The notes under the pieces: model-generated
Database searches by the model: none
What the model was told of the DNA's origin: nothing
Seen by the model: the letters and a program-made list of their open reading frames with translations, nothing else
Shown: one piece after another, positions 2,892 to 63,549 of the stretch
How the letters are laid out: every line of letters begins with the position of its first letter
Numbering within the stretch: the stretch's first letter is position 1
Position numbers and translations under genes: made by a program
Source of the DNA: an uncultured delta proteobacterium
GTDB taxonomy: Bacteria; Desulfobacterota; Desulfobacteria; Desulfobacterales; B30-G6
DNA length: 64,000 bases
Assembly (NCBI GenBank): GCA_963823335.1
Contig: CAWGLD010000004.1
Coordinates: forward strand, 4,382-68,381
Direction of reading: 5' to 3'

Positions 2892-3269
2892 AGTGTTATT
2901 TTAACCTGTTGGGGAAGATGATTTATGTTGATTTGTGACAGCTTCTTGCGTCACGGCTTTTGATTCGATGAATAGTAGCATTAATAGGCAATACATGCAA
3001 GCTGCACAAAGCTACGGGAACGACCATCCTCGAAGCGGGTTGCGAGGTTCTTCAATTCTCCGATGGTAATGAGTTAAAAAAACTATTTGTGCATTCAGCA
3101 GGTCTCTGCCTTAAAAAATGAATCCTGGTATTGATAATGGGTATCAGGTTATGATAGCATAGTGAATTCAGCGTGATCGACTCAGATAATAAGCTGGGAA
3201 ATGTAAATTCTTCAATAATTTCCGGGAAGGACAAGGCGGTACTTTCAAGGGGTTGAACAATGTCGAAGG

Positions 3270-7029: not shown

Positions 7030-7812
7030 ATGAATGAAGCCAGGCACATAGCTTTAGAATCACGTCTCTCTCACTGTGAAAATGTTATCACCCTCGGTGT
7101 TAAACCTAACCTGGAGGATTATTCCAGCGAGGCTATGGCGCTGATTCGAAATGCAAATAAAATATATTATCCGTCCTCCTTTCATGCGGAACTGTTCCAC
7201 GCCATGGGTAAGGAAACATTTCCCAGTCCTCATAACTATTCGTTTGCACAAGATAAAATAAAACAGACCGCGCTGTTCAAACTACTGAATATTCCCCACC
7301 CCCGTACCAGGGTTTTTTATGGAAAACATCAAAAAACCTCGATTTTAAAACACTTTCAATTTCCTTTCATCGCAAAAATCCCGCGGGGATCTGCCATGGG
7401 GCGCGGTGTTTTTCTGATACAGAACCAGACTGACTGCCATCGCTATCTGTCCCTGGACACCCCCGCCTATATCCAGGAATATCTGTCCCTGGACCGCGAT
7501 ATACGGGTTGTGGTAATCGGCAAGGAAGTTGCACACGCTTACTGGCGGATCGCTGCCAAAGGTGAGTTTAGAAGCAACGTTGCCGCAGGCGCCAGCATCA
7601 GCCTTGAGCCCGTTCCCAGAGAAGCACACGCCCTGGCACTGCAGACTGCTCAAGCATGTCGCTGGAATGACGTGGGTATCGATATCTGCTCCCACAACGG
7701 GAAATTATTTGTCCTGGAAGCCAATATGAAGTATGGAAAAGAAGGATTTAGAGCCGCAGGCATGGATTATGTGAACATGATGGCACACAAGATCGCTAAC
7801 GGCGCCATATAG
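7030..7812 (+). CDS. ATP-grasp ligase (RimK-like)
   Basis: 260 aa. Pattern FPFIAKIPRGSAMGRGVFL...IQEYL...DIRVVVIG...WRI...FRSNVA.G is typical of the ATP-grasp fold. Confidence 0.75.
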   Translation: MNEARHIALESRLSHCENVITLGVKPNLEDYSSEAMALIRNANKIYYPSSFHAELFHAMGKETFPSPHNYSFAQDKIKQTALFKLLNIPHPRTRVFYGKHQKTSILKHFQFPFIAKIPRGSAMGRGVFLIQNQTDCHRYLSLDTPAYIQEYLSLDRDIRVVVIGKEVAHAYWRIAAKGEFRSNVAAGASISLEPVPREAHALALQTAQACRWNDVGIDICSHNGKLFVLEANMKYGKEGFRAAGMDYVNMMAHKIANGAI

Positions 7813-7860: not shown

Positions 7861-7905
7861 AGCTGACAGCTATCAGCGGCTTATCCGAACTGGGAGGAAA
7901 AATAT

Positions 7906-17250: not shown

Positions 17251-17326
17251 TTATTTGACACAACACGCAATTTTGCGCTACAGTGGCCCTGTTTCCAACA
17301 ATGTCACGCACCATTGAAAGTTTTTT

Positions 17327-17398
17327 TCGCAACAATTTGCGAGGAATGTTCTGCCGTCCGGCAGTGCTTCGCAGCGACCGCAAGGAATTCTGTCTAAC
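17327..17398 (+). repeat. Palindromic module family E, copy E1 (partial)
   Basis: GAGGAATGTTCTGCCGTCCGGCAGTGCTTCGCAGCGACCGCAAGGAATTCTGTCTAA matches 27935-27990 and 41381-41436, with a compensatory hairpin change. Confidence 0.85.
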
Positions 17399-17402
17399 TC
17401 AG

Positions 17403-17654
17403 ATGCCAAAAAGAAACTCGCCACTACAGTTGAGGTGGGGAATATTGCTGCTTCTTGCAGGTCTGGGTGTTTTTTTTATGACACCCCAGAAAATGCAAGA
17501 GATTGAAAAGATAGAGCACTTTTCTTCATATATTCCTTTTATCTGGTTCTGTTTTTACTTTATGAGCATTCTGCTCATCGGCGGCGGGGTCAAAAAAATC
17601 TATCATAATTGTCGGCGCTCTGAGAATTCGAATGAAGCCGAAAACCAAAAATGA
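17403..17654 (+). CDS. Small membrane protein (hypothetical)
   Basis: The track ORF (17283) begins inside repeat E1. ATG 17403 yields an 83-aa protein with two TM helices. Confidence 0.35.
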   Translation: MPKRNSPLQLRWGILLLLAGLGVFFMTPQKMQEIEKIEHFSSYIPFIWFCFYFMSILLIGGGVKKIYHNCRRSENSNEAENQK

Positions 17655-17699: not shown

Positions 17700-19997
17700 A
17701 TGGCAAATAGTGTAGATGCATCAACACAGGATGTCCAGAATCTCAAGACCGAAGTGGAATATCGCACCAAACTTCAGGAGATCGGGAACAAGCTGAACTC
17801 AGCCATAAATCTGGATGAAATCTTCATTGATCTTCAGGACGATGTAACATCACTTTTTGAGGCAAAGCGAATGACGGTGTATGTCGTCGATGGTGTCAAA
17901 AGGGAACTTGTATCACGCTTTAAAACTGGCGATGAGATTTCAGAAATACGTATCCCTGTCTCGAAAAGCAGTATCGCCGGTTACGCTGCTTTTAAACAAA
18001 AGGCCGTCAATATTACAAACGTCTACGACAACGAGGAAATTGCATCCATTGATCCCGATCTGCAGTTCGACAGCAGCTGGGATCAAAAAACCGGCTTTGT
18101 CACCAAGCAGGTCATCGCCCACCCGATCATTTTTCAAAAATACCTTCTGGGAGCGCTCCAGCTCGTAAACAACAAACAAGACCGCCCCTTTACCACCATC
18201 GATGATAAATATCTCGATGAACTGGCCAAGATTTTTGGTATCGCCCTGTACAACCAGAAACGTATCGCCAAAGGCAAAAACACAAAGTTTGACTATCTGT
18301 TGGAAAATCATCTGATCACCCAGAAAGAACTCAACAACGCCATTGCGGATTCTCGTAAAGGAAAACGATCCGTCTCCGATGTCCTGATGAAAGACCTCAA
18401 GATCAAAAAGGGGGAAATCGGAAAATCCCTGAGTCGCTATTACAAGACCCCGTTCATCGAGTACAACGCCAGGATTCCTATCCCGGGCGAACTGCTTTCG
18501 GGGATCAAAATTCCTTTTATGAGAAACAATCATTTCGTTCCAATCCGAATTGAAGAAGGAAAGCTGCTGATAGCCGTCGACAATCCCAATGACCTGCAGA
18601 AAATGGATCAAATAAAGGTCCTGTTTCCCGGGAAACAGATAAAATTCTGCGTTTCCCTCGAGGAAGACATCCTCAGTTTCATCAAGCTCTTTACACAAGA
18701 TGATAAACAGATGGCCGAGATCGATGATATTCTCAGCCAGCTACAGAATGAAGCCGAGGAAATCGAAGAAGCGGAATCCGCCGTTGGAGATGAAGACAGT
18801 GCTGTGGTTCAGGTTGTCAACAAGATTATTATTGACGCCTACAATCGCGGGGCTTCTGATATTCACATTGAACCGTATCCGGGAAAACAGAATACAGAAG
18901 TCCGGATTCGAATCGATGGCGCCTGCACGCTGTATCAAACGATTCCTTTCAGTTACAAGGCCGCAGTGGTTTCACGTATCAAAATCATGTCCGACCTCGA
19001 TATTGCTGAACGAAGAAAACCCCAGGACGGCAAGATAAAATTCAAGAAATATGGCGGCAAGGATATCGAGCTCCGGGTGGCGACCGTTCCCACCCAGGGT
19101 GGTCTCGAAGATATCGTCATGCGTATTCTCGCAGCGGGGGAACCGCTCCCATTGAACAAAATGGGGTTTTCAGAAAGCAACTACGATAACTTTATCAGCA
19201 TCGTGACACAACCGTATGGCATTATCTTTGTCTGCGGGCCAACTGGTTCCGGAAAGACCACCACGCTGCATTCCGCCCTGGGCTACATCAATAAAACTGA
19301 AACCAAAATATGGACAGCCGAAGACCCGGTGGAAATCACACAGCGCGGTCTTCGACAGGTTCAGGTCAAACCCAAGATCGGTTTCGATTTTGCGGCTGCC
19401 ATGCGCGCTTTTTTGAGGGCGGATCCCGATGTCATCATGGTGGGTGAAATGCGGGACAAGGAAACAACCTCCATCGGTATCGAAGCTTCCCTGACAGGCC
19501 ATCTGGTTTTTTCGACCCTGCATACCAACAGCGCGCCGGAAAGCATTACAAGATTACTGGATATGGGCATGGATCCCTTTAATTTTGCCGACGCCATTCT
19601 CGGCATCATGGCCCAGCGTCTGGTTCGAACTCTTTGTAAAGAATGCAAAAAGGCTTACAATCCCTCCAAAGAGGAATATGACGAACTGCTTAGGGAATAC
19701 GGCGAAGAAGAGTTCAACAAAAACGTCAAGATTCCCTTCTCGGACGATCTTACCCTGTACAAAGTAGAAGGGTGCGAAGCCTGTCACAGTACCGGGTATC
19801 GCGGTCGGATGGCACTCCATGAGCTGCTCATGGGTACGGATGAAATGAAGAAATTGATTCAATCAAAAGCACAAATGGAAACTATCCGCAAACAAGCGCT
19901 TTTAGATGGCATGACCACATTGAAACAGGACGGTATTCAAAAAGTGTTTGGCGGGAATGTTGACTTGATGCAAGTAAGAAAGGTTTGTATCAATTAA
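17700..19997 (+). CDS. GspE/PilB-family secretion ATPase with N-terminal GAF and T2SSE_N (MshEN-like) domains
   Basis: Walker A VCGPTGSGKTTTL. MVGEMRD. GHLVFSTLHTN. Tetracysteine CKECKK...CEACHSTGYRGR. The N-terminal roughly 180 aa is GAF-like. Confidence 0.9.
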   Translation: MANSVDASTQDVQNLKTEVEYRTKLQEIGNKLNSAINLDEIFIDLQDDVTSLFEAKRMTVYVVDGVKRELVSRFKTGDEISEIRIPVSKSSIAGYAAFKQKAVNITNVYDNEEIASIDPDLQFDSSWDQKTGFVTKQVIAHPIIFQKYLLGALQLVNNKQDRPFTTIDDKYLDELAKIFGIALYNQKRIAKGKNTKFDYLLENHLITQKELNNAIADSRKGKRSVSDVLMKDLKIKKGEIGKSLSRYYKTPFIEYNARIPIPGELLSGIKIPFMRNNHFVPIRIEEGKLLIAVDNPNDLQKMDQIKVLFPGKQIKFCVSLEEDILSFIKLFTQDDKQMAEIDDILSQLQNEAEEIEEAESAVGDEDSAVVQVVNKIIIDAYNRGASDIHIEPYPGKQNTEVRIRIDGACTLYQTIPFSYKAAVVSRIKIMSDLDIAERRKPQDGKIKFKKYGGKDIELRVATVPTQGGLEDIVMRILAAGEPLPLNKMGFSESNYDNFISIVTQPYGIIFVCGPTGSGKTTTLHSALGYINKTETKIWTAEDPVEITQRGLRQVQVKPKIGFDFAAAMRAFLRADPDVIMVGEMRDKETTSIGIEASLTGHLVFSTLHTNSAPESITRLLDMGMDPFNFADAILGIMAQRLVRTLCKECKKAYNPSKEEYDELLREYGEEEFNKNVKIPFSDDLTLYKVEGCEACHSTGYRGRMALHELLMGTDEMKKLIQSKAQMETIRKQALLDGMTTLKQDGIQKVFGGNVDLMQVRKVCIN

Positions 19998-20040: not shown

Positions 20041-20060
20041 GTGTTCTGGGGGAGGGTGAT

Positions 20061-20084: not shown

Positions 20085-20095
20085 TTACTCGTTTT

Positions 20096-20140
20096 CATTC
20101 GATGTTGGATGTTCAGCGTTCGATGTTGGACGTTCATCTT
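20096..20140 (+). repeat. Solo arm of palindrome family D (TCGATGTTGGACGT words)
   Basis: CATTCGATGTTGGATGTTCAGCGTTCGATGTTGGACGTTCATCTT matches the right arm of the complete palindrome at 63474-63513. Confidence 0.8.
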
Positions 20141-20197
20141 CATGATATCATGACAGAAGGCCCTGTCTTCTTTCTCGGACTGATTCCGCCAGAAAAA

Positions 20198-26810: not shown

Positions 26811-26903
26811 TTTATATTTTAGGCTTTTCTCCCGATTTGTTGTAGAAATGCTGTTGGTGGAAGCCTTGTCGAAATCGGGATCGCTATCGGGATCGGGATC
26901 GAG

Positions 26904-27299
26904 ATGGTATTAGGTCATGAAAAATTAGACGTTTACCGCCTTTCAATCGGCTATGTCGCATGGGTTTATGAAAAGTGTGCCAGGCTGAGAGGCGTCCATC
27001 GTTCAGCAAGAGACCAGTGGCTTCGAGCCAGCCAGTCGATTGCGCTTAATATTGCAGAAGGCAACGGTAAGACAGCGAAGGCTGATCGGCGGCGATATTT
27101 CGAAATAGCGCGTGGGTCGGCATTGGAGTGTGCCGCAATCCAAGATGTCTTGGTAGTCGGAAAAGGTTTGGATAAAGTAGAAAGCCGGCAGCGCAAAGGT
27201 GAATTGGACCGCATTGCTGCAATGCTTAGTCGATTGGGCGGCAGGGGTTATAGCGTAAAGGAAGGGTTCGGGGAATACGGCTATACTGAACGGCAATAG
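26904..27299 (+). CDS. Four-helix-bundle protein (23S rRNA intervening-sequence protein / Avd-like family)
   Basis: KLDVYRLS...QWLRASQSIALNIAEGNGK...RRYFEIARGSALECAA, the family signature recalled for PF05635/TIGR02436-type proteins. Confidence 0.9.
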   Translation: MVLGHEKLDVYRLSIGYVAWVYEKCARLRGVHRSARDQWLRASQSIALNIAEGNGKTAKADRRRYFEIARGSALECAAIQDVLVVGKGLDKVESRQRKGELDRIAAMLSRLGGRGYSVKEGFGEYGYTERQ

Positions 27300-27403
27300 C
27301 GAGCGCATTCCCCGTAGCTTGCTGCGGGGTTAGCGAGCGAATCAAATAGATAAAATCCTTACCGCGAAGATTCCCTGCAGCTTGCTGCAGGGTACTCTTC
27401 AAT
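27298..27403 (-). repeat. Palindromic module family E, copy E2 (inverted relative to E3/E4)
   Basis: The reverse complement reads ATTGAAGAGTACCCTGCAGCAAGCTGCAGGGAAT...TTCGCTCGCTAACCCCGCAGCAAGCTACGGGGAATGCGCTCGCT. Confidence 0.8.
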
Positions 27404-27609
27404 TCGATCCCGATCCCGATCCCGATAGCGATTTCGATAAGATATAGCCCGAGCTGTATTTCTCTTGACCCGAATTTTGGAGCCCTTTCCTCCAACTAAA
27501 TTGGGAGAAGATCCATATTTTATTCCCGCATTATAATAGATATCTCCTAATTTCCGAGATCTCAATAGAATGCGATACAGCTCCAACAAAACAAGGTTAA
27601 CAGACCCCT

Positions 27610-27910: not shown

Positions 27911-28055
27911 ATTGAAGAACCTCGCAGCAAGCTACGAGGAATGTTCTGCTGTGCGACAGTGCTTCGCAGCGACCGTAAGGAATTCTGTCTAATTTAGATT
28001 CGCTCGCTAACCCCGCAGTAGGCTACGGGGAATGCGCTCGCTGTTGCGGTTCAAT
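27911..28055 (+). repeat. Palindromic module family E, copy E3 (full length)
   Basis: Three hairpins: CCTCG-CAGCAAGCTA-CGAGG, CTGCTG-TG-CGACAG and CCCCG-CAGTAGGCTA-CGGGG. Nearly identical to 41357-41525. Confidence 0.85.
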
Positions 28056-28084
28056 AAACCGTAAACGAGAGGTGAATAGACAAT

Positions 28085-28342: not shown

Positions 28343-28430
28343 TTCTTTAGGTACTACGACCGCCGTGTATCTATAAAGACCATACACGCATCACACCACG
28401 CTTTAGCCTGCGTATGAATTTAATTATAAT

Positions 28431-28762
28431 GGATCATCTCCCAAAGAGTTGATCCAAATTAAGGATTCAAGGATTCCAGGGGCCCAGGGGTCGAGTGAGA
28501 TGAAGTGAGGTGCCAGCTAAATGCTTAAGAATTATAAAGAGTTAAATGTCTGGAAAAAAGCGTATAAACTTTGTTTGGATAAACGATGATATCCGGTGAT
28601 TTGGATTATATGAACAAGGAAAAGCTTCAGGGTTTAAGAGAGGCGCTTGGGAATGTAGAGAGAATGCTAAAAGCCATGATCACATCCCTGGAAAACAAAC
28701 ACTTGAATCCTTGAATCCTGGATTCCTTGAACCCTTTCTCCCAACTTATTGGGAGAAGATCC
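28431..28762 (+). mobile_element. Cassette copy C1: 4HB pseudogene with internal deletion, full termini
   Basis: GGATCATCTCCCAAAGAGTTGATCC...TCTCCCAACTTATTGGGAGAAGATCC. Remnants MLKNYKELNVWKKAYKLCLDKR* and, out of frame, GDLDYMNKEKLQGLREALGNVERMLKAMITSLENKHLNP*. Confidence 0.75.
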
Positions 28763-28785
28763 ATATATTTTAACGAGGTGAGTTA

Positions 28786-33700: not shown

Positions 33701-33934
33701 ATGTCCAGCCACGCATCCAATGCTAAGCTACTCTTCACCAATTGTATCAATCTCAACTCAAGAAGCTGCCGGTATACAAAGAAACCTGAAACTATCCTGT
33801 CCCTGTTCAGCGATCCAGAAAATTTCGCGGTCAGTGATCAGAAGATTCACGAACTGAACGACATATGTTCCCAATGTGATTCATACCATATGCCTGACAA
33901 ATTAAAAGATTTGGATCATCTCCCAAAGAGTTGA
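33701..33934 (+). CDS. Small Cys-rich protein (CX8C...CX2C), 3' end replaced by insertion of cassette C2
   Basis: Strong AAGGAGG lies 8 nt before ATG 33701. The reading frame enters the element at 33913, and removing the element restores ...PDKLKDLQ*. Confidence 0.45.
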   Translation: MSSHASNAKLLFTNCINLNSRSCRYTKKPETILSLFSDPENFAVSDQKIHELNDICSQCDSYHMPDKLKDLDHLPKS

Positions 33935-34174
33935 TCCAAATTAAGGATTCTAGGATTCCAGGAGTCCAGGGTTCGAGTGAGATGAAGTGAGGCATCAGCT
34001 AAATGCTTAAGAAGTATAAAGAGCTAAAAGTCTGGAAAACAAACACTTGAATCCTTGAATCCTGGACTCCTTGTACCCTTTCTCCCAACTAACCCTCATG
34101 TCCGGGGCGGTCACAACGAAGGATGAAAATATTGATGAGAATGATGGCTATTTTCATATAAATTGGGAGAAGAT
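33913..34174 (+). mobile_element. Miniature cassette copy C2 (ORF deleted) with a nested 72-nt insert in the terminal hairpin loop
   Basis: Flanked by ATTAAAAGATTT on both sides (33901-33912 and 34173-34184, with the rightmost AT shared with the element end). Confidence 0.8.
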
Positions 34175-34259
34175 TAAAAGATTTGCAGTGACCGTTGCGA
34201 TTCGTGCTATTTATACTTGCCTTATCTGCTTCCTGTAACTATATTGGATGATTAATTTT

Positions 34260-34454
34260 GGATCATCTCCCAAGGAGTTGATCCAAATTAAGGATTCAAG
34301 GATTCCAGGGGTCCAGGGCTCGAGTGAGATGAAGTGAGGCATCAGCTAAATGCTTAAGAATTATAAAGAGTTAAAAGTCTGGAAAACAAACACTTGAATC
34401 CTTGAATCCTTGACTCCTTGAACCCTTTCTCCCAATCTAATTGGGAGAAGATCC
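34260..34454 (+). mobile_element. Miniature cassette copy C3 (same deletion junction as C2)
   Basis: GGATCATCTCCCAAGGAG...ATGCTTAAGAATTATAAAGAGTTAAAAGTCTGG|AAAACAAACACTTGAATCC...TTGGGAGAAGATCC. Flanks are TTAATTTT / ATAACTTTTT. Confidence 0.8.
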
Positions 34455-34481
34455 ATAACTTTTTACAGAGGAGGATAGACA

Positions 34482-35730: not shown

Positions 35731-37085
35731 AAATCGTGCTGTCCAAAGACCTGAAGCTTTCCGATCTTCCCAAAGCACTCAAGACAGAACTCATCGGCAA
35801 ACTGACCATTCCCAATCCCAAATGGCTCGAAAACGCCAGAATGGGAAGATGGAACCGGAATGTTCCCAAACTGCTTCGCTTTTTCCACCGTTACAAAGAA
35901 ACTCTTTGGATTCCCAGGGGATACCTGCGACAGTTAATTATGATGTGCCGGCATTACAATATTTCATACCAGATGGAGGATCTCAGACGAAACCTGCCAT
36001 CAGCAAATTTTTCGTTTCAGGGTGAATTAAAACCTTTTCAGAAAAAGGCTGTCGACAAAATGCTCAGCAGAGATTTTGGGACGCTGAATTCACCTACAGG
36101 CAGCGGCAAGACCGTCATGGGTCTCTTTATGATCGCCCACAGACAGCAACCTGCACTGGTGGTCGTTCACACAAAAGATCTGGCCTATCAGTGGATTGAA
36201 CAAATTATACGCTTTTTGGGAATCCCGGAATCGCAAATCGGAATGATTGGATCCGGAAAAAAACAGATTGGGGATGCGATTACCGTCGCACTCGTCCAGT
36301 CCCTTTATCGTTGTGCAGATGTCGTATCAAAGAGGGTGGGGCACATCATCGTTGACGAGTGCCATCGGACTCCGAGCCGGACCTTCACGGACGCTGTGAC
36401 CGAATTTGATGCGAGATACATGCTTGGCCTGTCAGCCACCCCTTTTCGCAGGGACAACCTTTCAAATTTGATATTCTGGCATCTGGGTGATGTGCACCAT
36501 TCTGTGGACAAAGCCCATCTGATCGAGGAAGGGCATATTCTCGAAGCTGAAATTATCCTTCGTGAAACTGATTTCGAACCATACCACGACCCTGTGAACA
36601 GCTACAGCAAAATGCTGTTGGAATTGACCATGAACGATGAGCGAAACCATCTCATTGCATCGGACGTGGTCAAAGAGATTCAAAAGGGTGATGGCATCTG
36701 CCTCGTGCTTTCAGACAGAAAGAGACATTGTGAAACACTGCTGTCGCTTCTGCGGTATAAACATCGTGTGGAGGCCGATCTCTTGACGGGTGATCTGTCC
36801 AACGAGCAGCGGCAACACGTGCTTCAGCGGATCAAGGCCGGCCTGGTCCCGGTTGTAATTGCCACCGGCCAGTTGGTGGGGGAGGGGTTTGACTGCCCCA
36901 ATCTGACAACTCTTTTCCTGGCCACACCGATCCGTTTCAGCGGGAGGGTCCTTCAATATCTTGGAAGGGTTCTCAGGCCAGCGACCGACAAAAGAAGCGC
37001 CAGGGTCTACGATTATGTCGACGTCAAAGTCGGTGTACTCCAGTCCGCCGCAAAGCATCGGCAAAAAGTCTATGCAGGCATGTGA
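35712..37085 (+). CDS. SF2 DEAD/DEAH-box helicase (XPB/ERCC3- or type III res-subunit-like)
   Basis: Motif I SPTGSGKT, motif II VDECH, motif III LSATP, motif VI QYLGRVLR. Confidence 0.85.
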   Translation: MADVTLKIVLSKDLKLSDLPKALKTELIGKLTIPNPKWLENARMGRWNRNVPKLLRFFHRYKETLWIPRGYLRQLIMMCRHYNISYQMEDLRRNLPSANFSFQGELKPFQKKAVDKMLSRDFGTLNSPTGSGKTVMGLFMIAHRQQPALVVVHTKDLAYQWIEQIIRFLGIPESQIGMIGSGKKQIGDAITVALVQSLYRCADVVSKRVGHIIVDECHRTPSRTFTDAVTEFDARYMLGLSATPFRRDNLSNLIFWHLGDVHHSVDKAHLIEEGHILEAEIILRETDFEPYHDPVNSYSKMLLELTMNDERNHLIASDVVKEIQKGDGICLVLSDRKRHCETLLSLLRYKHRVEADLLTGDLSNEQRQHVLQRIKAGLVPVVIATGQLVGEGFDCPNLTTLFLATPIRFSGRVLQYLGRVLRPATDKRSARVYDYVDVKVGVLQSAAKHRQKVYAGM

Positions 37086-37096
37086 GTGGCAAATAA

Positions 37097-37135
37097 GGGT
37101 TAAAGGGTCCGAGGGTGATACAAGGGTTAGAGGGT
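37097..37135 (+). repeat. G-tract module, family A copy 3
   Basis: Begins 12 nt after the stop at 37085: GGGTTAAAGGGTCCGAGGGTGATACAAGGGTTAGAGGGT. Confidence 0.85.
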
Positions 37136-37140
37136 GGCTG

Positions 37141-37405
37141 ACGGCGATGAACCTCCACCCGAGGATCGGGTGGGCTCAAGAAGCCCCCTCGAAGGGGGCT
37201 GGAATATCCAATATCGAATATCGAATACATGAATTTCGAAGTGATGCTTCCCGGTTTTTAGAATAAAGGAAGATAGAGCGCAGCGATACAACACTTCAAT
37301 ATTGAACATTCCTTGTTCGACATTCGATATTTTCCTTTTTAATTTTCACCGTATCGGTAGAACCTTTCCGGGTTCTCCACCATGGTTGGAAGTTTTTAGA
37401 TCAGA
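37141..37405 (+). repeat. Mosaic element family B, copy B1 (complete: hairpins, ATATCGAA-word arms, short ORF remnant, tail hairpins)
   Basis: Arms at 37203-37227 and 37315-37333 are inverted. GCCCCCTCGAAGGGGGC hairpin. The tail GAACCTTTCCGGGTTCTCCACC...TTTTAGATCAGAA is shared with B2 and B4. Confidence 0.8.
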
Positions 37406-39402: not shown

Positions 39403-39565
39403 GTTCTCCTCAGCTTATGGAACAAAAGAAGATAGAGCGCAGCGATACAACACGTCAATATTCTACATTCCTTGTTCGATATTCATTATTCTCTTTTGTT
39501 TTCACCGGATCGGTAGAACCTTTCCGGGTCCTCCACCGGAGGTGGAGCTTTTAGATCAGAAATAA
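39403..39565 (+). repeat. Family B copy B2 (right half)
   Basis: CAGCTTATGGAACAAAAGAAGATAGAGCGCAGCGATACAACACGTCAATATTCTACATTCCTTGTTCGATATTC...CTCCACCGGAGGTGGAGCTTTTAGATCAGAA. Confidence 0.85.
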
Positions 39566-41273: not shown

Positions 41274-41356
41274 ATTCGCTTTGCAAATTTATTAAATGCG
41301 ACTTCGTCGCTTCTATCGACGAAAGGTAGATAACGGATCCAAAAGGCCCGGCACTG

Positions 41357-41525
41357 ATTGAAGAACCTCGCAGCAAGCTACGAGGAATGTTCTGTCGTGC
41401 GACAGTGCTTCGCAGCGACCGTAAGGAATTCTGTCTAATTTAGATTCGCTCGCTAACCCCGCAGCATGCGAAGCACTGCCGGACGGCAGAACCTACGGGG
41501 AATGCGCTCGCTGTTGCGGTTCAAC
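41357..41525 (+). repeat. Family E copy E4, with a 28-nt nested insert in the third hairpin loop
   Basis: Identical to E3 except for a CT/TC swap and the insert CATGCGAAGCACTGCCGGACGGCAGAAC (41465-41492). Confidence 0.85.
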
Positions 41526-42669: not shown

Positions 42670-42687
42670 GATGAGTGTTTCAAATTT

Positions 42688-42930
42688 TGGATCATCTCCA
42701 GAAGAGTTAATCCAAACTGAGTCTCCACCCGCGGAGCGGGCGGGCTCAGGATGCCCCCTCGAAGGGGGCTATAATATCCAATATCGACTATCGATTACAT
42801 GAATTTCGAAGTGATGGTTCTCAGCTTATGGTACAAAAGAAGATAGAGCGCAGCGATACCACACGTCAATATTCTACATTCCTTGTTCGATATTCATTAT
42901 TCTCTTTTATTTTCACCCGATCGGTATTCG
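42688..42930 (+). repeat. Family B copy B3, with a cassette-type left terminus GGATCATCTCCAGAAGAGTTAATCC
   Basis: It combines the C-family terminus with B-family internal modules. The right tail is truncated before the ABC permease start. Confidence 0.8.
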
Positions 42931-47645: not shown

Positions 47646-49285
47646 ACTGTCAGCTTCTCACGAAATATCTTTGAATTGTGCCGTATATCCACTGGAAATG
47701 CCTTGTGAAACAAGAAGGTGTCGATTTCCTGGGTAAGGACAGACTCTTTGGCGAGTTCCAACAGCTCTTCGATTATCTTGCGCTTGTTTTTCTTCTGACG
47801 GTTTTTTTCCAGTTCAATGCATATAACCGGTTTTTGGTTAGGGCGCGGCCTCACCCCCACCAGGGCACTTCTGAAAACCTGGGGATGACGATTGAATATC
47901 GCCTCACAGGGAATGGTAAACAGGGTCTGGGTCTTTGTTATGATACGGTGGCTTTTTCTTCCGCAAAACCAGAGTCGTTTTTCCCTATCGATCCACCCAA
48001 GATCTCCCATGCGGTGCCACAGACTGGTGCTCTCTTCTATTTTGGAAAGCAAGTCATCCCGTTTTCTTTCAAAATACTGGTGGGTTACCAGATCACCTTT
48101 GACCGTAATCTCGCCGATTTCACCGTCCGGAACAACCAGATCATTGGACCATTGGGGAATCATGTCGTCACTTATGCGGATGATACGTACCTTCAATCCC
48201 GGCAAAACCCGACCGACGCAGATTCCATAACCCTGTTCGCTCAACTGGCGTGTCTTTTCCAGGATCTCATGGCTCCCCATGACCGATACCGGCATGGCTT
48301 CGGTGGCCCCGTATCCGGGAAAAATTTCGGTTTCCGGTTCCAGAAGGTGACTGAAACGCTCAAGGTTGTCGGGTAATGCCGGCGCACCAGCCGAAATCAC
48401 CCTTTTCAGTGATGGAAGCTTGATGTTCAGAGCCTGACCGTATCGTCCCACCCGGTTGAGCAGTGCCGGAGACGCAAACATATTTGTCACACCATGATTC
48501 AGAATCAGCTCGATAATACGTTCAGGGTTCACCTGTGCCGGTTTGGTGGGATCCATGTCCGGTATCACGGCAGTCATACCGAGCGCTGGATCGAACAGTG
48601 CAAACAGCGGAAATGTCGGCAAATCGATTTCACCGGGCGCAATCTCAAATCGCTCCCTGATATGTCGTACCTGGGCATCGAAGATGCCGTGGGTATAGAC
48701 AACACCCTTTGCCGGTCCTGTACTGCCGGTGGTAAAGAGAATTGCCGCTGTTTCGTCCTTGTGGGTTTTTGCCATTGGAAATGGTTTCCAGGGTGTTCTG
48801 CGAATATCTGAAAGCCTGGGGCCGCCCCAAAACCATCGCTTACCGACCGTTATGGACATATTCAATGATTTAAAATAACTGGGCGTGCACATACGCAATG
48901 CATGGGCCAGGGGTATACCGATAAAAGCGGTTGCTTTGCTCTCTGACAGACAGTTGAGCATTCTCTTGATTCCCATTCCCGGATCCACCACCACGGGTAC
49001 CGCGCCGGTCTTAAAAAGAGCAAACGTCAGGGCAAAGAATTCAAGACCCGGTTTTAGCATCAGAATAGTCCGGGTACCCTGTTTGATACCATGTCGAATG
49101 AGGCCGTGTGCCAGGCAATCGGACTCCCTGTCCAACTGTCGGAAGGTGAGATGAGCGTAGGCGATTCCCCTGTCCCGGTTCTGCGGCAACGGGCAAACCA
49201 CAGCCCGGGTGTAGGGTTGCTTGCGTGCCATTTCCCGAAGCAGGGAGGCCACATTCACCATTCTATCTTCTGGTATTTCATTCAT
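47621..49285 (-). CDS. oleC: OleC, AMP-dependent synthetase family (beta-lactone synthetase)
   Basis: AMP-binding motifs FTTGSTGPAKGV and GYGATE. 25-nt overlap with oleD. Confidence 0.85.
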   Translation of the reverse strand: MNEIPEDRMVNVASLLREMARKQPYTRAVVCPLPQNRDRGIAYAHLTFRQLDRESDCLAHGLIRHGIKQGTRTILMLKPGLEFFALTFALFKTGAVPVVVDPGMGIKRMLNCLSESKATAFIGIPLAHALRMCTPSYFKSLNMSITVGKRWFWGGPRLSDIRRTPWKPFPMAKTHKDETAAILFTTGSTGPAKGVVYTHGIFDAQVRHIRERFEIAPGEIDLPTFPLFALFDPALGMTAVIPDMDPTKPAQVNPERIIELILNHGVTNMFASPALLNRVGRYGQALNIKLPSLKRVISAGAPALPDNLERFSHLLEPETEIFPGYGATEAMPVSVMGSHEILEKTRQLSEQGYGICVGRVLPGLKVRIIRISDDMIPQWSNDLVVPDGEIGEITVKGDLVTHQYFERKRDDLLSKIEESTSLWHRMGDLGWIDREKRLWFCGRKSHRIITKTQTLFTIPCEAIFNRHPQVFRSALVGVRPRPNQKPVICIELEKNRQKKNKRKIIEELLELAKESVLTQEIDTFLFHKAFPVDIRHNSKIFREKLTVWAEARVR

Positions 49286-49531
49286 AGGCAGTAAGCAGTC
49301 AATGTCATTGATGTAAGGTGATTCCCGGTACCGTGTAATGTAGCGCAGGTCTTCAGACCTGCAAAAAAGCTCTGCGCTAGATCATTAAGTTAACGGCATT
49401 GAGCAAGCAGCAAGTTGCAAGCAGCGTATCGCTTGAGGCTTAGAGCTTCAAGCCTCAACTTTCGGTTTTATCATCGATAGCTTAACGCTTATTGTTAACT
49501 GCTAACAGTTTTAATTACAACAAGTTATAGA
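49286..49531. repeat. Mosaic of palindromic modules filling the oleB-oleC spacer
   Basis: F-type hairpin 49340-49380. GCAAGCA words 49401-49425. Hairpin TTGAGGCTT-N8-AAGCCTCAA 49433-49458. TAAC/TAAG words at both ends. Confidence 0.7.
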
Positions 49532-50452
49532 TCAATCTCTTAAACTGTCTTCTAACATGAAGTTACGGATGCGGTCAATGACTGTCTCTGCGGCATCCTC
49601 CAGGATATAATGACCGGCATCCGCAAAGGTATGCACACGGGCGTCGGGAAACCGATGACGCCACTCATGGAGATATGCCTTCGTAAAAACAAAATCCTTC
49701 ATGCCCCAGCAGATAAGCATGGGCAAATTTCTCAGACGGTGCAATTCGTTCTGTACCGCTTTCACCGTTTTAAAACTTGGATCGCCTGGTTTGATAGGGA
49801 TGTCTTCCACAAACTTGAGGGTTGCAATCCGGTTCTGCCAGCAGTTGTATGGCGCCAGTAGCCCCGATCTCACATCACCGGGCAGACCCTTGGTCGTTGC
49901 CATGAAAAGGGCGCTGCGTGCAAAAGCGTTGAATCCTAAAACCGCCAGTTTTGCAAAGGGCTTGACATGGCGGATCAATCGCAGCCTGAAGGGCAGGGAA
50001 CGGCCCTGGGGGGGGAAGAACGCTGCGGTGTTGAGCAGGATAATTTTATCTATGCGCTCCAAATGCCTGAGAGCATAAGCGATACCGATCATACCGCCCC
50101 AATCGTGGAGTACTAAGGTTATTTTCTCTTTTATTTCCAAGTGATGGATGAAGCTTTCCAGATCGTCGACCCGGCAGTCAAGCGTATAACCATAGTGCTC
50201 CAGGCCTGGTTTCTCTGATAACCCACAGCCGATATGATCCACTGCGATCGCCCTGAAGTCCGGAGAGAGATCCTGAATGAGTCTGCGGTAATAAAACGAC
50301 CAGGTCGGGTTGCCATGCACCATGATGACCGGCGGTCCTGCCCCTTGGTCCACATAGTGATACTTGAACCCATTCACGTCCATAAAACGGGATTCGAATG
50401 GATACAGGTGCCGGCATTTCGATAAATCAATGGGCTTTGGTTTTATTTTCAT
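49532..50452 (-). CDS. oleB: OleB, alpha/beta hydrolase (haloalkane-dehalogenase-like; beta-lactone decarboxylase)
   Basis: HGNPTWSFYYR, LHDWGG. C-terminal catalytic His context GHYILED. Confidence 0.85.
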   Translation of the reverse strand: MKIKPKPIDLSKCRHLYPFESRFMDVNGFKYHYVDQGAGPPVIMVHGNPTWSFYYRRLIQDLSPDFRAIAVDHIGCGLSEKPGLEHYGYTLDCRVDDLESFIHHLEIKEKITLVLHDWGGMIGIAYALRHLERIDKIILLNTAAFFPPQGRSLPFRLRLIRHVKPFAKLAVLGFNAFARSALFMATTKGLPGDVRSGLLAPYNCWQNRIATLKFVEDIPIKPGDPSFKTVKAVQNELHRLRNLPMLICWGMKDFVFTKAYLHEWRHRFPDARVHTFADAGHYILEDAAETVIDRIRNFMLEDSLRD

Positions 50453-59600: not shown

Positions 59601-59695
59601 ATTTTGAATTAAATGAATCAAATCCTTTGAAAGATGGGTTGCCGAACCCCAAGGAAGATCTGAACCGCCATTTAGGTAAAAGAAAGGAGAGAGCC

Positions 59696-60106
59696 ATGGA
59701 CTACGCCTACCAACGACTGGACATCTGGAAAAAGGCGGTCGATCTTTCCATCAAGGTCATTCAATGTATCGCCGAAGTGGCCAATGAGGTTGAAACACAG
59801 CGCCTTACCGAGGAAATCGAAATGAGTGCCGTCAATATTGCCACAAACATCGCCAAGGGAAAAGCCTGTTTGTCGGAGGAGGATTTCATTTATTATCTGT
59901 TTTTGTCAAAAAGATCACTGTATGAAACCATGACACTGCTGGAAATTCTCAAAGCCAAACAGTTGATTACCGACGAGTGCTACATGGAAATCGAAACAAA
60001 AGGAAAAAACATCACTGGAATGCTGATTGAATTTATCCGCTCAGTCAAAGAAACCGGCAGCCCCTATCAGGCAGAAAACTACCAGGCTGCTTACAGAAAC
60101 CGATAG
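59696..60106 (+). CDS. Four-helix-bundle protein (divergent 23S-IVS-protein/Avd-like), copy a
   Basis: RLDIWKKAVDLSIKV...SAVNIATNIAKGK...FLSKRSLYETMTLLEIL. AAGGAGAG RBS before ATG 59696 (the track start at 59627 is less likely). Confidence 0.8.
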   Translation: MDYAYQRLDIWKKAVDLSIKVIQCIAEVANEVETQRLTEEIEMSAVNIATNIAKGKACLSEEDFIYYLFLSKRSLYETMTLLEILKAKQLITDECYMEIETKGKNITGMLIEFIRSVKETGSPYQAENYQAAYRNR

Positions 60107-60121
60107 AACAAAAGGAGATAA

Positions 60122-60514
60122 ATGATGACCTATATCTATGAAAAGCTCGACGTCTGGCAAAAAGCCATGCAGTTTGCCGGGGATGTCATTGATTCCATGT
60201 CGATGATGAACAGCAAAGACTACCATCAAGAGATTTTAGAGAAAACAGAAGGGAGTGCAGCCGGTATCGCCGGCGCCATTGCCATGGGAAAATCCTACAG
60301 TTCAAAACACGATTTCGCCAGACATCTGTATCATTCCAGGGGCGCCTTGTACGAAACCATGACTCTGTTGGAGTTGTTGAAACGTAAACGCCTCGTTGCC
60401 GAAGATAAATTTGCTGATTTCGACACCAGGGCAAACCAACTGACCGCCATGCTGACCGCCCTGATTAAATCGATTTACACACCCAAATCGGACAATGGCA
60501 AACAATCATCATAA
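60122..60514 (+). CDS. Four-helix-bundle protein, copy b (paralogue of copy a)
   Basis: KLDVWQKAMQFAGDV...GAIAMGKSYSSKHDFARHLYHSRGALYETMTLLELL. AAGGAGA RBS. Confidence 0.8.
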   Translation: MMTYIYEKLDVWQKAMQFAGDVIDSMSMMNSKDYHQEILEKTEGSAAGIAGAIAMGKSYSSKHDFARHLYHSRGALYETMTLLELLKRKRLVAEDKFADFDTRANQLTAMLTALIKSIYTPKSDNGKQSS

Positions 60515-61157
60515 GCGTCAACCTCCTGAGATGAGGCTGATAATTTCAGTCGATTACAGAGAAAGGCCTTCCGGACTTCCCGATCTTCTGGTTGATGCAG
60601 GATTTGAGGTGGCTATAGTCAAGCTCCCTTATTGTGACTACATAATTAACCATGGAATATCCATCGAAAGAAAAACCGGCAGGGATTTCGCTATCTCAAT
60701 CATCGACGGCAGACTATTTAAACAGGCCAGTTGGATGCGAAAGCGAACCAATCGGCCTGTTTTTCTCCTGGAAGGAAGTCCGTTTCATGTCGATGTGGAC
60801 ATACATAAGAAGGCGATTAAGGGCGCAATGCTTTCTATACAAGTCGCATGGAGCATCCCCATCATTTATTCTCGATCTATGGAGGAAACATGCAATATTT
60901 TCAGAACACTGGCAACCCAGCAGGAAAACCAGACCGAACGCCTGGAACTCAGGCACGGTTTTCGATCCAAACGGATGATCTCAAAACGGTTGTATCTTCT
61001 ACAAGGGCTTCCAAATATTGGTCCGGTTATGGCTCTGAGATTGATCAGACATTTTAAAACAGTCCACCGTGTTATGAACGCCAGTATCGATGAATTAACG
61101 GAAGTGGATGGCATTGGGGAAGATACTGCTGATAAGATCCAGGAAATTCTCCGGTAA
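60495..61157 (+). CDS. ERCC4-domain (XPF/Mus81/Hef-type) nuclease with C-terminal (HhH)2
   Basis: VDYRE...CDYII...ISIERKTGRDFAISIIDGRLFKQ...PVFLLEG. The HhH segment is LQGLPNIGPVMALRL...EVDGIGEDTADKI. Overlaps 4HB-b by 20 nt (alternative ATG at 60531). Confidence 0.9.
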   Translation: MANNHHKRQPPEMRLIISVDYRERPSGLPDLLVDAGFEVAIVKLPYCDYIINHGISIERKTGRDFAISIIDGRLFKQASWMRKRTNRPVFLLEGSPFHVDVDIHKKAIKGAMLSIQVAWSIPIIYSRSMEETCNIFRTLATQQENQTERLELRHGFRSKRMISKRLYLLQGLPNIGPVMALRLIRHFKTVHRVMNASIDELTEVDGIGEDTADKIQEILR

Positions 61158-63381: not shown

Positions 63382-63513
63382 ATGAACATCGAACATCGAA
63401 CGTCCAACATTGAATTTTGAATTTAAAAAGATGAAGAAACAGAAATATTTCGATATTGGTTTTTTTGTTTCCATTCGACATTGGACGTTCGATGTTCGAT
63501 GTTGGACGTTCAT
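63382..63513. repeat. Complete palindrome of family D (arms of TCGATGT/TGGACGT words, about 59-nt loop)
   Basis: The left arm ATGAACATCGAACATCGAACGTCCAACATTGAA and the right arm TTCGACATTGGACGTTCGATGTTCGATGTTGGACGTTCAT share a 23-nt perfect complementary core. Confidence 0.85.
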
Positions 63514-63549
63514 CTTTATAAAATCATCGTTGTCCGGAGGATTTTATTT

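Follow-up and report, generated by a model that had tools for sequence, protein, structure and literature searches.

A five-G-tract repeat module on the sense strand beside stop codons in an uncultured Desulfobacterales clade

Introduction

The closest precedent for the element described here is the class of GGGNATC and GGGGA(C/T)T repeats of Xanthomonas and Nostoc, which are abundant, G-rich and over-represented in non-coding DNA (Rehm et al. 2015, PMC4692102). Those on the sense strand lie within 50 bp of a stop codon or overlap it, and the repeats are far nearer to the preceding (5') ORF than to the one that follows and are under-represented between divergent genes (PMC4692102). They adjoin genes of all functional classes, and their length and sequence vary among related species (PMC4692102). 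The repeats are perfect tandem heptamers with a variable number of units (mode four) and 4-nt loops; their formation of a G-quadruplex (G4) was shown in vitro, and they have no assigned function (PMC4692102). In Xanthomonas, the G-rich strand is antisense about as often as it is sense (30% vs 35%; PMC4692102).

We analyzed a 64,000-nucleotide stretch of DNA from an uncultured delta proteobacterium (the window) that contains a 40-base, G-rich module, called the G-module below. Like the Xanthomonas and Nostoc repeats, it consists of abundant, G-rich, intergenic short words near stop codons on the sense strand. Unlike those repeats, it is a fixed five-word unit with a spacing of 8/8/11/8 nt, a GATACA insert and a place in mosaic composites, and it is not a simple tandem heptamer (77 of 119 arrays have five tracts). 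Its loops are longer (5-8 nt) and its sense bias is much stronger, 29:5 to 55:5. The G4 of the Xanthomonas and Nostoc repeats was formed in vitro, whereas that of the G-module is predicted.

Three other kinds of bacterial repeat invite comparison. REPs are imperfect palindromes with stable hairpins that are mobilized by RAYT/TnpAREP and that serve as barriers to 3' exonucleases. The G-module is similar to REP and BIME elements in that it is a high-copy, extragenic repeat of 3' flanks that is combined into mosaics, and similar to REPs in that a large share of copies is within 15-20 nt of the upstream stop codon. As summarized in PMC12306157, Liang et al. (2015) found that ribosomes stall and expression drops where a REP is less than 16 nt away from a stop codon. 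Unlike REPs, the G-module lacks a palindrome and its predicted folding is no more stable than that of shuffled sequence, and it also does not have the terminal inverted repeats of a MITE.

Cyanobacterial STRR heptamers and small dispersed repeats reportedly form intergenic arrays of 7-8-nt words (Mazel et al. 1990; Elhai et al. 2008). The G-module shares with them the presence of several word families per genome, nesting, mosaicism and restriction to a lineage, but it belongs to another phylum and is built of other words; we know of no report of a strict sense rule beside stop codons for the cyanobacterial repeats. Mycobacterial MIRUs are said to be tandem intergenic units of 40-100 bp that are oriented as the flanking genes and that overlap or abut the upstream stop codon (Supply et al. 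1997). Inside operons, small ORFs in the MIRUs connect a stop codon with a start codon. The G-module likewise forms intergenic tandem units with gene-like orientation at the upstream stop codon. Unlike MIRUs, it often occurs between convergent genes, and its spacer of 0-15 nt puts it in no particular frame with respect to the stop codon.

Results

The window contains three copies of the G-module, all on the plus strand (Table 1), each of which reads AGGGTT(C/A)AAGGGTCC..GAGGGTGATACAAGGGTT(C/A)GAGGGT. The module has 40 bases and five GGG tracts separated by 5, 5, 8 and 5 nt, and the extra G run of copy 1 comes from a 5-nt insertion. Its 25-nt right half, GAGGGTGATACAAGGGTTMGAGGGT, occurs three times in the window, with no mismatches beyond one degenerate (C/A) position, and 0 copies are expected from 100 dinucleotide-preserving shuffles. 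The earlier note on this DNA had claimed that a five-G-tract module with this spacing lies just past the stop codons of three unrelated genes, always in the sense orientation of the upstream gene. All of this is borne out (stops ending at 7812, 19997 and 37085; Table 1). When the search was relaxed to any array with three or more AGGG words, no fourth copy came up in the window.

The window is also rich in other intergenic word repeats. One of these, of family D4/D3, adjoins copy 3 and its truncated S module; it is separate from the G-module and is an example of the mosaic composition of 3' flanks. Repeats of the D4/D3 type occupy two other sites in the window (Table 1).

Table 1. Repeat modules and associated features in the window, and consensus modules of the composites
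Feature	Position	Strand	Sequence or composition	Context
G-module copy 1	7816/7817-7860	+	AGGGTTCAAGGGTCC[CGGGG]GAGGGTGATACAAGGGTTCGAGGGT; 5-nt insertion giving a G5 run	starts 3 nt past TAG stop (7810-7812) of RimK-like ATP-grasp gene
S module after copy 1	7861-7879	+	AGCTGACAGCTATCAGCGG, CAGC-word array	
G-module copy 2	20001/20002-20040	+	same as family consensus	starts 3 nt past TAA stop (19995-19997) of GAF/MshEN/T2SSE ATPase gene
Extra partial G-word behind copy 2	20048-20060	+	GGGGGAGGGTGAT	followed by hairpin and TTCGATGTTGGA-word repeats
G-module copy 3	37096/37097-37135	+	two C-to-A loop variants	starts 10 nt past TGA stop (37083-37085) of ResIII/DEAD helicase gene
Truncated S module after copy 3	37136-37146	+	GGCTGACGGCG	remaining intergenic region is a different repeat family
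Adjoining D4/D3 repeat	37148-37338	+	GC hairpins and inverted ATATCGAAT-word arms	one D4/D3-type copy, immediately 3' of G-module copy 3
D4/D3 repeat elsewhere	42718-42908; 39409-39515			
D4/D3-type family, three sites	37148-37338; 39409-39552; 42718-42926		two GC-rich hairpins (CCACCCGAGGATCGGGTGG; GCCCCCTCGAAGGGGGC), then inverted ATATCGAAT-type word arms round a ~50-nt center	
S module			RGCTGACAGCTATCAGCGGACAGCAGC	run of NNNCAGC heptamers
P module			ATCCCAGC TTCCAAGC ATCCTAGC GTCCCAGC ATACAAG	C-rich words
Q module			CACCTAACAGCCTACAGTCTAAACCGCTAAAAGGCTAA	alternative to P behind S
Hairpin cassette	28425-28772		terminal inverted repeats TGGATCATCTCCCAA... / ...TTGGGAGAAGATCCA; inverted AAGGATTC/AGGGTTC-word arms	core is a frameshifted 23S_rRNA_IVP (four-helix-bundle) gene remnant (MLKNYKELNVWKKAYKL... 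...SLENKHLNP)
Cassette derivatives	33907-34097; 34254-34464		internally deleted, MITE-like	
Intact 23S_rRNA_IVP genes	59627-60106; 60122-60514		Pfam E=1e-19; 4e-18	adjacent to each other, directly upstream of ERCC4/HhH nuclease gene (60495-61157)
Hairpin-forming word arrays	20091-20151; 63385-63527		TTCGATGTTGGA / AACATCGAACG words	one in the convergent flank of copy 2
Inverted/dispersed repeats	26865-26911 and 27401-27441; 27284-27346 and 27994-28056; 41356-41524; 17315-17428; 3027-3082		ATCGGGATCG hexamer words; 63-nt arms with GCTTGCTGCGGGGTT / AACCTCGCAGCAAGC	
TAAGC/AAGC-word cluster	49285-49500		TAAGC/AAGC words and 'CAACTTTCGG' motif	3' flank of minus-strand gene 49532-50452

We scanned one genome per GTDB species with the query AGGGTGATACAAGGGTTNNAGGGT, and the loci studied were thus chosen by an exact match to the core. 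Among the matches listed there are at least 98 core-matching blocks of eight kb, and all of the blocks listed are from nine uncultured Desulfobacterales ("delta proteobacterium") MAG species. The genome of the window is not among these blocks. The nine MAG species hold at least 120 non-redundant copies of the G-module. Genes in the loci were called by a crude rule, the greedy choice of the longest ORFs of at least 90 aa. One block (L002) is syntenic with the helicase locus of the window at ~82% DNA identity and has, in the same place as copy 3, a partial module followed by two full copies. The G-module had no match in a collection of viral contigs, and we rejected a phage origin on that ground. 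A search of the window against Rfam at the gathering threshold found two tRNAs only and no family for the G-module; in 14 repeat-rich loci it found PYLIS_3 only, so the companions of the G-module are also without a family. A full-text search of the literature found no description of the family. We conclude that the G-module is a real, high-copy, lineage-restricted intergenic repeat of an uncultured Desulfobacterales clade.

The placement of the copies follows the genes. One hundred of the at least 120 listed copies are intergenic. The other 20 are "inside" called ORFs, and those that we looked at (e.g., in L014 and its orthologue L077) are in spurious ORFs that run through repeat arrays. Between co-directional genes, 55 of the listed copies are sense and 5 are antisense (p=1e-11); convergent gene pairs account for 20 listed copies and divergent pairs for 8. 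After arrays and orthologous sites were collapsed into 77 independent sites among the listed loci, there were 29 sense and 5 antisense sites between co-directional genes (p=4e-5). At 38 of the 49 independent listed sites with a same-strand upstream gene, the module starts within 15 nt past the stop codon of that gene, a placement that 3.3% of random intergenic 40-mers share. The next start codon is at a median distance of ~225 nt and a minimum of 45 nt from the listed copies. A chance origin was rejected on two grounds, the 0 core copies expected in shuffles and the 3.3% of random 40-mers with stop-proximal placement. The earlier note, which had only the three window copies to go by, judged their position and orientation too strict for chance and proposed tabulating distance and orientation to the nearest stop codon more widely. 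Across the sampled copies of the nine MAGs, the bias toward 3' ends and sense orientation is present, and it is not due to chance.

The position is not set by a fixed target sequence, since there is neither a preference for one stop codon nor a consensus in the spacer. Among the listed loci, the stop codons before modules are TAA in 23 cases, TAG in 18 and TGA in 15 (background 276, 144 and 228), and this usage is unbiased. The spacers of the listed copies are 0-15 nt in length, and in several listed copies TAG or TAA overlaps the first AGGG. An insertion target of fixed sequence was rejected for these reasons, and a translated extension or small ORF was rejected because the distance from stop to module has no fixed frame. 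In one 300-kb contig, the orientation of four modules is +, -, -, + within 40 kb (L028 +, L042 -, L003 -, L064 +), following the local genes, which indicates that orientation tracks transcription and not the replichore. In convergent regions, both genes can bear a sense copy of their own, and the result is an inverted pair of G-modules (L017, L045 and L088). Diverged or truncated copies have a weaker bias, 23 sense to 13 antisense. An unrelated, palindromic family, the TAAGC-word hairpins, is as close to stop codons as the G-module is. Closeness to the stop is therefore weak evidence of function by itself, and a deletion bias combined with the sparing of downstream promoters could also result in placement right after the stop.

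The G-module is the first part of a composite, followed in most copies by the S module and then by P, Q or other word sets (Table 1). The words are 7-8 nt long, with the order (AGGGTYYR)2, AGGGTGATACA, (AGGGTYYR)2, followed by CAGC heptamers and finally by C-rich octamers or other sets, and composites are often in tandem. The G-module itself has a word spacing of 8/8/11/8 nt with a single GATACA insert, and exactly five tracts of G3 or longer, with loops of 5 or 8 nt, are found in 77 of the 119 listed arrays. In one of its two alternatives, the earlier note took the element to be a module of a repeat family that is kept at 3' ends; to this extent it was right, as the G-module leads the composites of a mosaic family of dispersed repeats built from words.

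Conventional RNA structure is nearly absent. By itself, the G-module has a predicted fold of -1.2 to -5.9 kcal/mol, with almost no Watson-Crick structure, and the consensus G-S-P composite folds like its shuffles (z=-0.03). Long-range pairing between the G-module and the downstream C-rich words was rejected, since only GGG:CCC triplets could pair and the z score is close to zero. The S module starts with an 11-bp near-palindrome, AGCTGACAGCT; a small hairpin or palindromic signal at this place was rejected because there is no covariation and the palindrome is not strictly conserved. The GGTTCGA within the module resembles a tRNA T-arm, and the complementary stem is absent.

The earlier note raised the possibility of a G4 in the RNA. 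A three-layer G4 with loops of 5, 5 and 8 nt is predicted with the G4 model of ViennaRNA, but its gain of only -2.7 kcal/mol is marginal, and in sequence context it competes with weak hairpins. G4Hunter scores of the G-modules are borderline (1.02-1.22). The canonical G4 motif calls for four consecutive tracts of at least three G with loops of 1-7 nt. In the G-module, whose loops are 5/5/8/5 nt, no choice of four consecutive tracts avoids the 8-nt loop, and the motif passes only an extended definition.

We rejected the possibility that the G-module is an intrinsic terminator. Copies 1 and 3 have no GC-rich hairpin with a U tract, and copy 2 has only weak terminator-like sites 60-110 nt downstream. 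Across the loci, terminator-like sites follow ~11% of genes, the same with or without a G-module. An integron attC site was also rejected, as direct reading of the sequence gave no RYYYAAC/GTTRRRY cores and no palindrome. Terminal inverted repeats of the MITE type were not found: only 8 of the 171 G-word arrays listed have an inverted partner within 1.5 kb. No target-site duplication was found at the junctions or by comparison of filled with different orthologous sites, and none of the orthologous flanks compared provided a clean empty site that would define ends or a target duplication.

Orthologues of the helicase upstream of copy 3 were retrieved by protein, independently of the G-module motif, and they differ in whether the module is present. 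In the orthologue L099 (93% aa identity), a module begins 11 nt past the TGA codon. In three others (L100, L101 and L102; 89-90% aa), there is no module after the gene and none anywhere in their ~5-7 kb, and all relatives with 60-65% identity also have no module after the gene. The module is found after the gene in two relatives and is missing from three others at 89-90% protein identity. Where blocks from different MAG species are syntenic, 3' flanks have been replaced wholesale: behind the same stop codon, L010 has a G composite where L042 has a TAAGC-word hairpin, and extra units have been inserted between the stop and an older copy in L063 relative to L006. Sometimes the final codons of the upstream gene are rewritten (L048 vs L069).

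Comparison of copies indicates both rapid turnover and retention of the tracts. In the two words that the search left free, identity is 78% between orthologous copies and 69% between non-orthologous ones, compared to 86% for the upstream coding DNA. Orthologous copies that are barely more alike than others, together with the swaps of flanks, imply rapid turnover or concerted evolution; the low similarity is as compatible with recent spread or gene conversion as with selection. In the same two words, the AGGG(T) columns have 1.1-1.8 bits and the loop columns 0.6-1.2 bits. In 23 orthologous pairs, the A+GGG columns, which are half of the total, have only 15 of the 79 differences (p=2e-8). For the T after GGG, there are 23 changes to G and 4 to C, and the excess of T-to-G means that tracts are lengthened and not broken. 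Between copy 3 of the window and the copy in L099, 7 of 40 positions differ, two by T-to-G, and 0 of the differences are in the 20 A+GGG positions. The AGGG tracts are preferentially retained. Across loci, the loop variants of the G-module are mostly TTCG/TCCG against TTCA, TTTG, TCCA and TCTG, a pattern of CpG-type transitions that hints at cytosine methylation and deamination at CG.

Discussion

We favor the view that the G-module belongs to a BIME/STRR-like mosaic repeat, that the G-tracts of this repeat are subject to a constraint specific to the coding strand, and that it probably acts at the 3' boundary of the mRNA. Judging from sequence comparisons, we give this view a probability of about 0.45. 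The G-module would be the stop-proximal leading module of lineage-specific, mosaic intergenic repeats that spread and are reshuffled among the 3' flanks of genes, probably by recombination between shared modules, by a putative transposition activity, or both. Its maintenance on the mRNA-sense (non-template) strand and the sparing of its G-tracts suggest that the array of tracts is under strand-specific selection.

If so, action would most likely be at the 3' boundary of the cistron, in the form of a weak intramolecular G4 or of a multi-site platform for a protein that binds AGGG. Since the G-module is within or just beyond the footprint of a terminating ribosome, it could form or be bound only when translation does not occupy the site. 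It might slow 3' exonucleases, cause RNA polymerase to pause or terminate, or affect events coupled to termination, much as E. coli REP hairpins do when fewer than 16 nt separate them from a stop codon. A functional 3'-UTR element or RNA G4 (rG4) is consistent with the bias for the coding strand, the sparing of AGGG and the T-to-G changes that lengthen tracts; the marginal predicted G4, the lack of terminator features and the gain and loss among close relatives speak against it. The favored view also has to accommodate the fact that the module is dispensable at a given gene (L100-L102; L010 vs L042), the weaker bias of diverged and truncated copies, the equal stop-closeness of the TAAGC hairpins, and the small difference between 78% and 69% identity of copies. 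Strand bias and substitution pattern are harder to explain neutrally than is closeness to the stop.

The main rival to this view is that the repeat is selfish or neutral DNA, filtered by strand-specific tolerance, that has no positive function and has spread by transposition or gene conversion. It would persist where it is harmless, in 3' flanks, and be pushed against the stop codon by deletion bias; its G-rich strand would be non-template because G-tracts in the template strand, or C-rich RNA 3' ends, are counter-selected. Much of what we found about turnover is as expected for such an element, including its presence in one lineage only, its gain and loss among helicase orthologues that are 89-93% identical, the exchange of whole intergenic contents between species, the common tandem arrays and mosaics, and orthologous copies that are scarcely more similar than non-orthologous ones. 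The functionally unrelated flanking genes and the TAAGC hairpins, a word family with no relationship to the G-module and just as near to stops, point the same way. However, neutral decay would not be expected to spare AGGG or to favor T-to-G over T-to-C. In addition, a sense bias of 29:5 to 55:5 exceeds any replication-linked insertion bias, and orientation follows the local genes. We think that a purely selfish origin is unlikely, and the three remaining rivals, taken up below, are less likely still.

The favored view has a broader form that we regard as distinctly doubtful. The grammar of short-word modules after stop codons could be the general 3'-end signal of the clade, with the five-tract AGGG module as its strand-specific first element, either a G4 in RNA or non-template DNA or a platform for an AGGG-binding protein. 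Such a structure would form only once the terminating ribosome clears it and would couple termination of translation to formation or stability of the transcript 3' end. Hairpin-plus-U terminators follow only ~1 gene in ten in the loci of this clade that we analyzed. If this broader form is true, a bacterial transcriptome would have hundreds of rG4-capable sites on the sense strand. That would be contrary to the depletion of rG4s that has reportedly been seen in bacteria (Guo and Bartel 2016).

In one of its two alternatives, the earlier note took the G-module to be a left-arm module of a cassette family, and the corresponding explanation is that it is a decayed, solitary arm of a hairpin cassette from which the center and the right arm have been deleted. 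The cassettes in question have terminal hairpins (GGATCaTCTCCCAA... / TTCTCCCAA..TTGGGAGAA), arms made of words, and a gene of the 23S_rRNA_IVP type. A minority of copies adjoins terminal hairpins of cassettes with a remnant of the 23S_rRNA_IVP gene; the G-S-P composite or G-words come right after such hairpins in L031, L059, L060, L089, L093 and L098. The cassette at 28425-28772 in the window and its derivatives at 33907-34097 and 34254-34464 have AGGATTC/AGGGTTC arms around the IVP remnant, and AGGG and AGGA words are intermixed in L089. Nonetheless, the description as a left arm is mostly wrong. Inverted partners are present in only 8 of 171 G-word arrays, more than 50 copies adjoin a stop codon with no terminal hairpin, and neither a partner nor a cassette terminal hairpin was found at the three window copies. 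Random decay predicts right (antisense) and left arms in equal numbers, whereas 29:5 was seen. AGGA-type word arrays, which occur only as cassette arms, have no strand bias (4 sense, 5 antisense), and the stop-proximal sense rule is therefore specific to the GGG-type composite. Decay from a cassette arm is improbable as the origin of the G-module.

The cassettes are of interest in their own right. The sequence at 42683-42721 of the window also belongs with the cassette and its derivatives. Related copies of the window cassette are found in L002, L059, L081 and L098, and the window also has two intact genes of the 23S_rRNA_IVP type next to each other (Table 1).

A very improbable explanation is that the G-module is a ribosome tether similar to a Shine-Dalgarno (SD) sequence, in which the central word GAGGGUGAU pairs with the 3' tail of 16S rRNA and keeps 30S subunits, or ribosomes that have terminated, at the 3' UTR to allow stabilization or re-initiation. 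For a duplex with a generic anti-SD tail, the calculated energy of the central word is -9.9 kcal/mol and that of entire modules is -11.9 to -14.5 kcal/mol, compared to a median of -5.2 kcal/mol for the regions upstream of the window genes. But the 16S tail used is generic and not that of this genome, and 17% of random 40-mers reach -9 kcal/mol. The pairing word GGGTGAT is lost in diverged copies (GGGGGAT in L099; GGTGGTA and GGTGTAC in L025) in which the G-tracts are kept, and many copies are between convergent genes, where there is nothing to re-initiate.

A polar signal or protein-binding array that acts in DNA independently of transcripts (a Chi- or KOPS-like sequence, a nucleoid-protein site or an uptake sequence) is likewise very improbable: the G-module is indeed a G-rich, oriented, over-represented oligomer family and the S module opens with a near-palindrome, but orientation flips within 40 kb with the direction of local genes, copies are confined to intergenic 3' flanks instead of being found throughout genes, the 8/8/11/8-nt spacing is out of step with the helical repeat, and the palindrome has neither covariation nor strict conservation.

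If the strand-specific constraint on the tracts reflects function, the G-module would be a compact 3'-UTR element of bacteria that does not depend on Watson-Crick structure. G-tract repeats at stop codons would then be known from a second, independent case, after those of Xanthomonas and Nostoc, which would suggest a general principle. Even if the family is selfish, it documents fast, modular turnover of 3' flanks, is a source of spurious ORFs and of problems in MAG assembly, and provides lineage markers for an uncultured clade of sediment and soil.

Several other repeats in these genomes are also located at the 3' ends of genes. The TAAGC family consists of abundant palindromic hairpins of (NN)TAAGC heptamers that start 0-10 nt past stop codons (e.g., L007 2076-2146, L005 6123, L014 2202, L042 1061, L054 651 and L062 2879-2931). 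The stop codon TAA or TGA is often part of the array as its first word, and the hairpins can fill a whole convergent intergenic region or replace the G composite at orthologous sites. In helicase 3' flanks from more distant Desulfobacterales contigs (L100/L101 4420-4470, L118-L124 and L140), there are other word arrays (ATCACGAAAACACGAAAGTACGAAATCACGAAA; AAATCCGAAATACGAAGCACGAAATCCGAGAC) and no G-module, which indicates that word-built repeats of 3' flanks may be widespread in the order.

One of the loci (L076, 6225-6324) has a match to Rfam PYLIS_3, the pyrrolysine insertion element of mttB, at 73.5 bits. At least one member of the clade thus probably decodes UAG as pyrrolysine, and such decoding could make backup stop codons and sequences after stops relevant.

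Within the window, the region at 24-35 kb has a low GC content (37-45%) and is especially rich in repeats. Farther along, the cluster of TAAGC/AAGC words at the 3' flank of a minus-strand gene (Table 1) resembles a post-stop repeat in L023, L030 and L082.
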